Assembly: GCF_025526975.1 (NCBI RefSeq)
Contig: NW_026515699.1
Location: 310,001 to 340,939 of the forward strand
Direction: 5' to 3'
Length of the DNA stretch: 30,939 nucleotides
From: Fimicolochytrium jonesii
Lineage: Eukaryota
Part shown: piece by piece, positions 26,237 to 30,939 of the stretch
How positions within the stretch are numbered: the stretch's first letter is position 1
Layout of the letters: every line of letters begins with the position of its first letter
Notes under the pieces: model-generated
The model's database searches: none
What the model was told of the DNA's origin: nothing
What the model saw: the letters and a program-made list of their open reading frames with translations, nothing else
Position numbers and translations under genes: made by a program

Positions 26237-27464
26237 GGTGGGGGATTGGATTGGGATCGTGCAGTGGGGGAGTTATTGAGGAGTGAATGTCTCCGACGCA
26301 GTTCGTTGTGTGAGCAGTGACTTTCTAGGTGTTCATATGATTATTGAGGCGAAATTGGACTCGGAAATGTGATTGTTTCTCCGACCCTGAGCGCGCTGTC
26401 GAAATTGGAAAGGAGGATCCAGTGGGCATCCCGACCGCTTATCTGCTCGCCAACTTCCTGTAAGAGCAGACCCATGCGCTTGATGCTCTATGTATCCGGA
26501 TGTTATGCTCCGAACCAATCCAGGAATCCTCAACTGCTTCGGGGAGGCTAGGGTGGTATCTATTGCGGCCCATTCGCAATAACGCTGGAAACCCGATTCG
26601 GCCTTCAGAACAAAGGGAAAAACATTGTGCTCCGCATAGGGGTCGAACCTGTGACCTACTGAGCATAATATGTTTCGTACCGTTTGTGAGAGAATGGACT
26701 GACAGTATGACAGTATTTTTGACCGCATTCGCAACTCACCCCGACGCTCTAACCGACTGAACCAGCGGAGCGAGATCCACCCTCTGGCCCACTGATCTGG
26801 AAGAGTTTGCATTTTCGGGGTGTCATACCCCCCGGAATGTCCTTCCGGCCAGCGAACAGAGCAAGTAACGGTTTGGGGGCAGTCAACATCAGCACAGATG
26901 CTGCACCACAAGGTCCAATGTGGGGCCCCCGTCGGGGTGAAGGAGCATCGTCTGATCATGGCAACTTGCGAAGAGCAGCTACGACATCCTGTTCAGAAGG
27001 CGGATGAATGCAACGGTGCAGACCGCAATGGCCCAAGCCCTTTGCGCACAGTACTGGGGCATTGGCCCTCGTCGTTCTCTCTGAGTCAAAGCTATGCCCA
27101 CCGGACAACCAAAGGGCTCGAGGAGATGATAGACGCCCTCCACGCCCTCTGTTAATGTGCACGCAGAGGATCCGCGCAAGCTAACCATTCGGAGGTCTCC
27201 AAGCGGGTGCTGTACACCTACATCTTATCGATGACACGGAGCGTGGGTATTCCTGCCTACATCAGAGGTCGCATTGACCTGACCTGACTTCCACTTCCTG
27301 AAGGGTGACACCGTTGCGGATTCCTAACTCCCAGCTGCCCGATTAGATACCATTTTCGCCACACTCGGGCACGTGCCCGTTTGTGATGTTTGGGATGTTG
27401 CAACTTGAGCCGGCCGAGGCGATTCGTGGGTATGTGGTTATGCGGCCCGCTTCAACAGCTGTAT

Positions 27465-27790
27465 GGGCAGCAGCAGCTAAGGGATGCGCCACACATATAG
27501 GTTAGCATGGGGTGGTGCATGGTGGGGGCCTGTTTTCGGGGCATTATGTGGCGTATGTGAGGGTTAGCAAGCGACCACCACCAGCGAATGGCGCTGGTGA
27601 CGCTGGAGCGAGTGCGGAAGAGGGGGCGGAGACGAAAGCCCCTACATCTGCAACACCGGAACAAGAAACGACAGAGAGCGAATGGGCGTACTGTAGCGAT
27701 ACGCATACGAGGGCGGCGACGTGGGAGGAGGTTAGCAAGGTGCAGGCATATATTCTGTTTTACGAGCGGTGGGATGGTGATGGGCAGTAG
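27465..27790 (+). pseudogene. C-terminal fragment of a USP (peptidase C19) deubiquitinase, frameshifted
   Basis: His box GVVHGGGLFSGHYVAYVR followed by WAYCSD...VSKVQAYILFYER. There is an in-frame TAG at 27503, the expected YRL lies in a shifted frame (27496-27504), and I found no Cys box or upstream exons between 26236 and 27460. Confidence 0.8.
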
Positions 27791-27894
27791 CTTAGTACAG
27801 AGTACATATTTACTGTTCCGGAGAATAAACCCCAACCAGCCAGCCTCGGGTGGCATGTCAGCTTTGCTGCCGGAGCGGCGATGCGTATCGGATA

Positions 27895-27929
27895 TAACCC
27901 TAACCCTAACCCTAACCCTAACCCTAACC
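27895..27929. repeat. Interstitial telomeric repeat (TAACCC)5 + TAACC, i.e. TTAGGG on the minus strand
   Basis: Read directly. TTAGGG is the common fungal telomere unit. Confidence 0.95.
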
Positions 27930-28103
27930 TGATTTCAACTCCGATGAATATGCTCTGGACGAGGAACGTAGTTCATGAGTTCAATGGATGAGGAGAAGGC
28001 TGTGCTTACTAAGCTTCTTTTCTTTCAACTCGAGCGATAATACAGTATAAATACATCCCCATCCCTGACCCCGTCCCGAGGGCTAATGACTGCTAATGGC
28101 TAC

Positions 28104-28163
28104 AGCGTGAAGGCTGTAAGGCCGAGCGTGGGCGTAAGGCCGAGCGTGAAGGCTGTAAGGCCG
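28104..28163. repeat. Tandem repeat of 18-21 bp x3 (AGCGTGAAGGCTGTAAGGCCG)
   Basis: Copies 1 and 3 are identical; the middle copy is shortened (agcgtgggcgtaaggccg). Confidence 0.9.
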
Positions 28164-28420
28164 CGCGTATGGGCAGCACATCTCCTAAAAGTGGTTTCTA
28201 ACCGTTCACAAGGATACAGCCAGTGTCCATAAAAGCTCCGAACCCGCAAGATTAAGTCAGTCTCCACTGTCGGCGCGTCCGACGTGACTCACAGCACCCG
28301 GGTCGTTTTCTTCACACTACTGTATGCCTCTCCTCAGCCAAGATCCTCGGCAATTGCCAAACCTTTTTCCACAGAATGCAATGGCACTGTTACCCTGCTA
28401 CTAGAAGCTAGAGCTATGAC

Positions 28421-28471
28421 CACTGCCGGCACGGCCAGGCGTGGTATTCACTGCCGGCATGGCCAGGCGTG
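28421..28471. repeat. 23-bp direct repeat x2 (CACTGCCGGCAYGGCCAGGCGTG)
   Basis: 28421-28443 and 28449-28471, one mismatch. Confidence 0.9.
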
Positions 28472-28579
28472 ATTGTTAGCTTAACTCTTGCTGGGCAGCA
28501 TTCTGCCACTGCTTTTTGGAGGTTGAGGTTGCCGGTGGCTCTCGTTACTTCCGCAATCGCTTGAGGGGCAGCCTAGATC

Positions 28580-29520
28580 TCGTCCCATACGCTTATTCAA
28601 GTCCGGAACGTAAGCCATACATCCCAACCGGCACACGTCCATCGTTCAAAGGTGAACCTCTGAGGCCAACCCCATGCGCCTTTTCAGTGCGCAACGGCCT
28701 GCACCGCTCCATACGCTTATCCAGCCCCGGAACGTCAGCCATACACCCCAAGAGGTACTCCAGCACCTCAACCCGGCTCTCAACGCTCTCTCCTTTCGCT
28801 GATTACGGAAGTGAACCTCTGAGTCCACCCATGCGCCTTCTGCGCGCTCCGGCTTCCACCGCTCCGTATGTTTATCCACCTCCGGCCGCAGCCACCGCCA
28901 TCTATGACTCCGTTGTCACCGGCACCCCATACGCCTTCTCAGTGCGCTACGGCTTACTCCATCCCATACGCTTATCAAGCCCCGGAACAGAAGCCAGTTA
29001 CCCCGGTAACATCATGGACACGAACAATAAGAAGGAAGCCCCCGATGCAGCCTCCATGGCCCATGCCATGCACGTTCAAGTCCACCCAGCCACACACGAC
29101 GTCCGCCTCTGCAAAGCGAAAGGCGAACTTCGGGCTGTACGGATCACAAGACCCCATCTTTGCGGATCTGGATCCACCTCTTCAAGACCACCACCGCCAC
29201 AATGGACTGGCGGATTCGACTACCGTTACTTCAAAGAAGGACACCGTACTTATCCCACCTACGTCCGGCGGCAACGCGCCCGCTCTATGCGACGTGTTAT
29301 CGGCTCCCGGTCTTACCCAGCCTCATACATCAGCTGTGCACTGATGAGGCAAACCTCTTATATCCGCTGCGAAATGCGCTGATAAAGAGAATCAGCGACG
29401 TTACCCCATCAACGGATCACCCGATTTGGACAACACAACGCTACCCCGGCTTCCACGCCATACGCCATTCCAGCGCGCCCCGGCTTCCCGCCGTACGCCA
29501 TTTCAGTGCGTAACCGACCC
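28580..29520. repeat. Dispersed degenerate repeat family built on a CCATACGC/CCATGCGC core
   Basis: Related blocks at about 28584, 28671-28740, 28828, 28926-28996 and 29457-29515, e.g. cccatgcgccttttcagtgcgcaacggc...ccatacgcttatccagccccggaac versus cccatacgccttctcagtgcgctacggc...ccatacgcttatcaagccccggaac. gtgaacctctgag occurs twice. Confidence 0.8.
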
Positions 29521-29988
29521 GCCTCTGAGTTCCCCATTTCAACACGCTCCTCTACTACCCGGAAGCAGTGGGGGCCCTCACGTGGGCATCTCGGGAGGAT
29601 GATACCTCCAACACCAATCGCTTGAGGTGTAGCCTGGATTTTGGGCACTCGCGGTACGCTATCAACTTCCGTCATTCATCGCTTCGCCGTCGTAGTCGTG
29701 GATGCCTCGGTAAAAACCTCTCCCAGGCGTAAAAACCTCCGTGAGGAAAAAAAACATAGATCCTGGGAGTAGGAAAAGAGCGCATCGTCGTATCAGGCAA
29801 GATCGGCTTTTGATGCCGTGCATATATATCCTCGTTTTCACCTCCAACCGCCACCAGGTAACAACCGCAATTCCTCACCGCTCTCAGCTTCATTACCACA
29901 GCACTGACGCGAGTTCCTTGACACACAGCTATCACGGCAATCACCTGCAACACCCGTCTCGGCTGACTTAGGGCACAGCACAGCCAAC

Positions 29989-30939
29989 ATGTCATCACAC
30001 CAAGCGCTCCAGGGGCACCTGTGGTGTGGCATCTTTACTGGAGTAACCACACCACGGCGGAAGAGGAGGAAGGTCACTCCAGTTACCCCGCGGTTGCCCA
30101 TACGTCTGCCGACCGCTGTGCAGACACCATTGCAATCACCCCCGCGATTTGAGTTCCCACCGTCTGTCCATCGCCACTTGCCCGAAGCAATTGCAGACAT
30201 GGTCAGTGAGAGTTCCGGCGATGACGACGGGCAGCACCAGCAGCGAGGGCTTTCACCTGTGGAAAGGGGTCTGCAGCGTCCGTTGAACCTCCCCGCTCCC
30301 ATCCCTTTCCGTTTTCCCAGCACACCGGGTGGATCACTGGTGCCTGAACCCCCGCCGCCACCACCACCAGTTCAACGACCTCGCCCACAGACGCATGCCA
30401 GCACGAAGGTTTCCCTTCACCGAATCCATAATCACAATCAAGTGCAAAGGGAGCGCCTGACAACGTTCATCGGCGATGTTCACGTACTTGCGCGCCACAC
30501 CACCTTCTTTCTCAAGTACTACCTTGGTGAGTTTTTGAGGTACACTACAGTGTATATTTCCCATAAGACAATGTCCTGACTGCTACATCTGCCCTCTCCA
30601 CTACAGCTGATCATCCTCTACACGATTTCCCGGACATCACCGACAAGCACATTAGTGTGATATTTGAGCTGCTAAACAATCCGGGCTACAACGGCAATCC
30701 GGTCCTCGCGCAAGAGTTGCGTCCACGGGTTCAAGAGTACTGTAATGTTCACGGATTCGCCCCCATCCGCATGCGAAGTAGCCAACAGACCGCAGCATAC
30801 ACAGCTACGAGCATCTTCACCAACCTTAAAGTCAACATACAGGAGCATTTTATGCAAATGTTTCTGCGCTATGTCAATGAAATGCTTGGTTTGAAGCAAG
30901 TCGTACTGCATCTCCGAGCGCAGCGCCAACAGTATTATC
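29989..30939 (+). CDS. Fanzor1 (eukaryotic TnpB-like RNA-guided DNA endonuclease), 3'-partial. Exons 29989-30526 and 30607->30939
   Basis: Intron GTGAGT...CTGAC...CTACAG (30527-30606) joins HASTKVSLHRI...RERLTTFIGDVHVLARHTTFFLKYYL to ADHPLHDFPDITDKHISVIFELLN...LRPRVQEYCNVHGF...QQTAAYTATSIFTNLKVNIQEHFMQMFLRYVN. This is colinear with the N-terminal region of Spizellomyces punctatus Fanzor1 as I recall it (...TNLKVNVQEHFMQMLLRYIN). The frame is open to the window end. Confidence 0.88.

Follow-up and report, generated by a model that had tools for sequence, protein, structure and literature searches.

A multicopy Fanzor1 gene family in the chytrid Fimicolochytrium jonesii with a changed TAM-contact surface

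The 30,939-nt stretch of Fimicolochytrium jonesii DNA analyzed here (hereafter, the window) ends inside an open frame, and the question raised by this locus is whether that frame and the ORF beginning at 29989 form a single gene, what the gene encodes, and how its product would compare with the enzymes already studied. The first-pass annotation had proposed that an 80-nt canonical intron links the two frames into a Fanzor1 RNA-guided nuclease gene. Our preferred reading, to which we assign a probability of about 0.6, is that the window holds the 5′ 290 codons of one multicopy, intron-containing Fanzor1 gene of a spizellomycetalean chytrid, and that the family to which it belongs is active with an altered or looser target-adjacent motif (TAM). 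The features of the locus are as follows.

29823..29983, + strand: candidate promoter and 5′-UTR intron signals, motifs only (TATATA at 29823, donor-like GTAAC at 29858, CTGAC at 29963, and three AG ends before the ATG)
29989..30526, + strand: coding exon 1 (179 codons plus one base), with the N-terminal extension, a WED strand and the first REC helix; 16 family rows share its start methionine
29989..30393, + strand: proline-rich (21%) N-terminal extension of ~135 aa, predicted to be disordered
30055..30072, + strand: basic cluster RRKRRK, a likely nuclear localization signal, found in 17 family rows, intact or with one R-to-Q change
30527..30606, + strand: intron of 80 nt, phase-1 GT-AG, after the codon equivalent to SpuFz1 residue 64
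30607..30939, + strand: coding exon 2, REC domain, open at the window edge and alignable to about SpuFz1 residue 170
30678..30710, + strand: shortened REC loop without Arg or Lys, replacing the SpuFz1 R96 loop (the TAM-groove anchor)
30737..30804, + strand: second "intron" of the public 230-aa model, judged spurious; the stretch aligns in frame to SpuFz1
30783..30797, + strand: start of the TAM-reading REC helix, with Q239/Q240 equivalent to SpuFz1 Q129/Q130 and A243 at the N133 position
30912..30920, + strand: in-frame deletion of 6 codons when compared with the whole sister; in five other models 5 codons are missing here

The ATG at 29989 opens a 196-aa unspliced ORF whose stop codon (30579) lies within the proposed intron; another frame stays open from 30567 as far as the window edge. 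Removal of 30527-30606 joins them into 290 stop-free codons that reach the edge. The intron has a G/GTGAGT donor and a CTACAG acceptor, its CTGAC branch motif lies 31 nt from the 3′ end and its pyrimidine tract is 74%; among nine frame-keeping GT-AG pairs it scored highest against SpuFz1 (253, with the runner-up at 225), and the same junction recurs in 19 of the 21 F. jonesii family models that cover this point. Together with the exon-wise collinearity described below, these observations bear out the proposed intron at 30527-30606 as a predicted gene structure. Upstream of the ATG, the N-terminal extensions of two sister models resemble the window only in the last few codons. A nuclear localization role for the RRKRRK cluster is likely by analogy with Fanzor localization data (PMC10530073). 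The spliceosomal intron and the hamartin, WD40, ferroportin, RCC1 and lipase 3 domains of the neighboring genes place this Fanzor1 gene in a eukaryotic nuclear locus. We found no CpG depletion in the Fanzor exons relative to host exons, and the window copy departs from well-conserved family columns at few points, the 6-codon in-frame deletion among them.

Each exon aligns separately to SpuFz1 (PDB 8gkh), as the comparison proposed in the first-pass annotation had anticipated. Exon 2 alone matched chain positions 466-560 (E = 4.1e-14). From exon 1, the final 52 codons searched alone matched positions 411-458 (E = 0.011), their sole match up to E = 10. The gap between the two matches is 7 residues in both proteins, so that the exons are in register. 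The spliced peptide, with its alignment score of 253, is identical to SpuFz1 at 60 of 157 positions, and the highest score among 200 shuffles was 50; the earlier claim of a match over about 150 aa held. Pfam-A contains no family for the exons, for 20 sister models or for SpuFz1 itself; because SpuFz1 has none, the silence on the exons is uninformative. A tree built from 26 REC-region rows placed the window copy within an F. jonesii clade (97/99) that adjoins a Gaertneriomyces protein (90/98) and is separate from the S. punctatus clade; this tree carried long-branch warnings. These exon-wise matches and the placement among Fanzor1 rows establish homology to the enlarged Fanzor1 REC/WED lobe, and the window retains the guide- or unwinding-related residues H21, K25, Q148 and R157. 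Sequence, tree and the fold predicted for a sister copy (below) support the identification of the gene as a Fanzor1 close to SpuFz1. The window itself contains no RuvC domain, omegaRNA or element end.

The gene had been described as missed by the ORF track. Public annotation does model the 30527-30606 intron, but then ends the protein with a spurious second one. The public model, XP_052921974.1 (P0021, 230 aa), is identical to the spliced peptide over 222 residues, and adding a 68-nt intron at 30737-30804 to the spliced gene reproduces it letter for letter. We rejected this second intron, judging that a predictor introduced it in order to reach a stop, because it would delete conserved REC coding sequence that aligns in frame to SpuFz1. 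XP_052921974.1 lies on a contig of 340,939 nt, exactly 310,000 nt more than the window; the window edge is therefore probably the contig end, broken inside a repeat, and a 2-3 kb extension is accordingly not obtainable from that assembly. Judging from the sister copy, the remaining coding sequence would place the first catalytic Asp about 0.6 kb beyond the edge and the stop about 1.4 kb beyond it, plus introns. It is unlikely that the copy is instead a true 3′-truncated relic and the window edge merely a tiling boundary: many sister models do end early and the 6-codon deletion is private to this copy, but the frame stays open through the final base, and the forced stop in the identical public model fits a cut at a contig end. 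The chance that the window copy is intact is near one in four; in S. punctatus, 19 of 42 Fanzor loci are full length (PMC10432273), and the lower bound for full-length F. jonesii gene models is 1 in 35. As it stands, the window copy is the front part of a gene, a fragment, and a whole sister is more suitable for testing.

A search with exon 2 returned 20 relatives among 61 candidates, every one of them named F. jonesii, and cluster look-ups and a second search enlarged the set to 35 gene models. The sister models are ~80-95% alike and amount to dozens of copies, with at least 37 distinct F. jonesii models reaching the C-terminal motif (30 rows of Table S2 of PMC10711439 plus 7 from this analysis), a copy number that may reflect carriage by a mobile element. 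Only one of the 35 (P0032, XP_052925929.1, 761 aa) spans the whole protein. Its residues 129-759 align to SpuFz1 at E = 4.6e-149, with 279 of 606 aligned residues identical (46%). By definition, the rearranged RuvC-II Glu of Fanzor1 proteins precedes a CxxC zinc finger by six residues, and the RuvC-III Asp follows (PMC10711439). The whole sister has this arrangement, with E656 six residues before the CxxC (C663/C666), a second cysteine pair at C699/C704 and D731, as well as the RuvC-I motif D497-P-G; in the window copy the corresponding positions would fall beyond the edge. Across the family models that cover them, D497 is present in 23 of 24, E656 in 14 of 14 and D731 in 11 of 11, and all three acidic residues occur together in 10 of the 35 models. 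The sister also retains Y345, R387, R407 and R531, which are guide- or unwinding-related. A structure prediction for the sister was of moderate quality (mean pLDDT 62.5, below 50 over residues 1-143), and a Foldseek search with it gave only seven matches at E ≤ 0.001, all of them Fanzor1 structures (SpuFz1, PpFz1 and GtFz1).

By analogy with SpuFz1, whole copies would likely function as RNA-guided DNA nucleases. A spliced mRNA would yield a protein of ~755 aa that the basic cluster would direct into the nucleus; there it would bind an omegaRNA made from the element 3′ end together with the flanking guide, REC and WED would clamp the TAM, and RuvC would cut both DNA strands. Cutting of empty sites may then aid persistence of the element, as has been proposed, but not proven, for Fanzors (PMC10432273).

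The difference from SpuFz1 that the first-pass annotation overlooked is in the TAM-contact surface. SpuFz1 reads its CATA motif through R96, Q129, Q130, N133 and R291 (PMC10432273), and a REC-loop arginine is common to the three solved Fanzor1 enzymes, with R85A abolishing cleavage by GtFz1 (PMC11423790). The window copy retains the equivalents of Q129 and Q130, has Ala in place of N133, and has an R96 loop that is five residues shorter and contains neither Arg nor Lys. A REC loop without any basic residue was found in 20 of 21 family rows, the window included, compared with 0 of 45 relatives, whose median is 5 (0 of 35 when S. punctatus is left out); the R96 column itself is Arg or Lys in 38 of the 45. 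These counts use only rows that span the loop, with the unrelated repeat protein P0063 removed and rows scoring below 60 against the SpuFz1 REC stretch (e.g., P0021, P0044 and P0055) left out; the loop alignment is gapped, and the absence of basic residues does not depend on its register. Of 27 family rows, 26 have Ala at position 133, a residue that none of 53 other rows has there; the equivalent of Q129 is retained in 21 of 23 copies and that of Q130 in 23 of 24. The SpuFz1 contact set is thus not shared by the family as a whole, R96 and N133 being changed family-wide and R291 varying.

The R291 position lies in a WED TAM helix (P0032 residues 390-401), a stretch that is beyond the edge for the window copy. 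This helix holds the peak 12-residue polymorphism among the copies (0.224, against a median of 0.038), a value reached by 7 of 2000 site permutations; the permutation ignores structural clustering of variable sites, and the copies are related rather than independent. Among 20 copies, the R291 equivalent is Arg in 11, His in 5, Gln in 3 and Cys in 1, and the helix variants fall into three shared haplotypes. In S. punctatus, the same helix window is unremarkable among 11 copies, with R291 in 11 of 11, R/K96 in 10 of 10 and N133 in 10 of 10. CpG changes in Arg codons usually yield His, Gln or Cys. At the position of SpuFz1 N385, the family carries Gly (G499 in the sister). N385A killed an engineered SpuFz1 (PMC13434818), but we do not take G499 to prove that the enzyme is dead: DPG is the form that Fanzors commonly have (PMC10711439), and the active PpFz1 and GtFz1 carry it.

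Judged from sequence, such an altered TAM face would likely change, loosen or weaken target choice. The main rival to our preferred reading is the last of these taken to its end, namely that effective DNA binding has been lost, the TAM-gripping surface having decayed under relaxed selection while the gene travels as passive transposon cargo. This is possible, and we hold it to be improbable rather than remote. In its favor, a basic-free loop marks nearly the whole family and none of the 45 relatives, the corresponding arginine is essential in GtFz1 (PMC11423790), the R291 position is Arg in just over half of the copies with the other three residues each a single CpG change away, and most gene models are partial. 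Against it are the triad, the zinc finger and many RNA contacts, all kept relative to SpuFz1 across ~54% divergence, the retention of the Q129/Q130 equivalents in most copies, and WED helix variants that form shared haplotypes rather than scattered single changes.

A different rival, which we regard as unlikely, is that these are ordinary SpuFz1-like nucleases that read a CATA-like motif through other residues, so that the differences have no great effect. Counterparts of Q129, Q130 and Y345 persist, the whole sister retains R291, and Fanzor1 proteins are known to vary in their TAM residues (PMC11423790). A CATA also occurs at 29755, ~230 nt 5′ of the ATG, which is no more than expected by chance. 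Against this, two of the five named TAM contacts (R96 and N133) are changed family-wide and R291 is variable, while S. punctatus copies keep all three, and a Spu-1-like left end was not found.

We favor an active family with an altered or looser TAM because the long branch that saw the loop rebuilt (0.85 changes per column) left the triad and zinc finger in place, and from their survival we infer that the enzyme stayed under selection. Whole copies are accordingly predicted, at the level of sequence, to recognize a TAM that is different or looser. Counting against an active SpuFz1-like family are the small share of models that are whole (1 of 35) or have all three acidic residues (10 of 35), the loss of the loop arginine, the change of N385 to Gly, the lack of a Spu-1-like left end upstream, and the long-branch warnings in the tree. 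It is a more doubtful proposition that an active F. jonesii family without the TAM-groove arginine, diversifying its TAM-reading helix within one genome, would supply natural SpuFz1-like editors with relaxed or several TAMs.

Among the known systems, the closest is SpuFz1 of the Spu-1 elements of Spizellomyces punctatus (PDB 8gkh and 9ceu-9cez; PMC10432273, PMC3627910). The two share a collinear WED-REC-WED-RuvC-zinc finger order with 46% identity to the whole sister, the same catalytic triad, multicopy occurrence in a chytrid of the same order, and an N-terminal basic cluster. They differ in that SpuFz1 is a single intronless ORF of 1917 nt, whereas an intron interrupts the window gene at residue 64, probably with several others elsewhere, and in that SpuFz1 has ~20 residues before the same point to which the F. 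jonesii gene adds ~115. At the TAM face and active site, the F. jonesii family differs by an uncharged loop shortened by 5 aa, Ala for N133, Gly for N385 and a polymorphic R291 position. PpFz1 of Parasitella parasitica (PDB 9cf0-3) and GtFz1 of Guillardia theta (PDB 9cer-t) share the Fanzor1 fold and the DPG motif (PMC11423790) but are far more distant, with 16-20% identity in the structure alignment; both keep the REC-loop arginine (PMC11423790), and the F. jonesii family is without the RuvC insertion domain. CrFNuc / CRe-1 of Chlamydomonas (PMC10530073, PMC3627910) resembles the window gene in having spliceosomal introns in a Fanzor1 gene and an N-terminal nuclear localization signal, but CrFNuc / CRe-1 rides on Helitron2, and no transposase was found near the F. 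jonesii gene in 26250-29950.

Intron gain in Fanzors is published (PMC10530073, PMC3627910), and intron-bearing Fanzors have been described before. Breaks in the sister models cluster at P0032 positions 178, 353-357, 423 and 515-516 (3 to 4 each), with further hints at 572 and ~642, which suggests four to six introns in the family genes, as read from protein models only; breaks at probable introns may be annotation errors. The residue-64 intron is missing from the metagenomic relatives L001, L002 and L004, whose alignments are continuous. Two of these, L001 (717-794) and L002 (5377-5443), have in common a phase-1 intron after SpuFz1 residue 163 that is not in SpuFz1, the F. jonesii family or the window copy. 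Intron positions thus turn over within the clade. One family model, P0048 (EV422DRAFT_623327), joins a tyrosine-recombinase-like N-terminal part (weak Pfam matches) to a Fanzor fragment; it is probably a chimeric gene model and a possible clue to a neighboring or carrier element.

Upstream of the gene, the 10-nt Spu-1 end motif had 67 matches at 2 mismatches, against 60 expected, and no closer match occurred in the 1.6 kb 5′ of the ATG; we therefore rejected a Spu-1-type left end. With an intron in the gene and no end motif, the locus does not have the Spu-1 form of a single intronless ORF between 30-nt inverted repeats. No transposase was found among 24 upstream frames (26250-29950), and a 300-aa upstream frame had no Atlas match. 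At 28554-29740, direct repeats of 25-80 nt form a patchwork in which the core CCATACGC recurs, possibly a separate repeat element. A comparison of DNA run X1 with the window at 80% identity gave five short pieces, three of them ~99% identical within 29109-29740 and one with unlike letters at both ends; none lay at the intron or the window edge, a result that covers a small share of words and says nothing on expression or the Fanzor exons. About 2 kb 5′ of the Fanzor gene is an interstitial telomere-type array, (TAACCC) x5.8, at 27895-27929. Just 5′ of this array ends a C-terminal His-box part of a ubiquitin-specific protease at 27506-27790 (+; Pfam UCH, 30.6 bits), and a pattern search of the window found no Cys-box motif of such a protease. 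A tRNA-like match with a long insert at 26628-26771 (-) scored 27.8 bits, below the Rfam cut-off of 29, and was not called by ARAGORN.

A metagenome search with the whole sister returned no relative, and a search with the alignment returned seven loci at 36-46%; the alignment query found no Fanzor1 relatives in viral contigs. The metagenomic loci had no flank similarity to the window and no convincing terminal repeats. L008 (1951-3267), a Fanzor1 relative at 35%, is on a 3.3-kb contig in a Bacteroidota genome bin and is most likely eukaryotic contamination of the bin.

The family has been caught before in a published screen. Table S2 of the 2023 supplement of PMC10711439 lists 33 F. jonesii Fanzor HMM hits; these are the same family, at least four rows being among the 35 models here, and all 30 rows examined are C-terminal pieces. 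Six accessions, XP_052921974.1 and P0032 among them, had no match in the portion of that table available to us, in a search run without a positive control, and the main-text passages of the paper that were available hold no discussion of the F. jonesii rows. No F. jonesii term occurs in the accessible supplements of PMC10432273 (file 2 excepted); the accessible supplement of PMC10530073 has none either, which is a weak negative as it also lacks Spizellomyces. The full-text literature yielded no study of the family, though subscription papers, patents or bioRxiv supplements may hold one; as far as these searches go, it is apparently unstudied beyond the screen. The candidate new nuclease of the first-pass annotation is thus a Fanzor1 as claimed, but one of dozens of copies of a family already in a published hit table, and the whole sister XP_052925929.1 is the better candidate.

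The new lead is the changed TAM face, and the whole sister is the copy on which to follow it up. Among Fanzor1 editors, SpuFz1 has been developed furthest; it is bound to its CATA motif, and a 2026 engineering paper describes a wider motif as something still needed (PMC13434818). A natural relative that is 46% identical, differs at the TAM contacts and carries three helix haplotypes is a test of how Fanzor TAMs evolve, and the family also tests whether the loop arginine is truly required. Should the family prove inactive, it would show the decay of an RNA-guided nuclease while its element keeps spreading.
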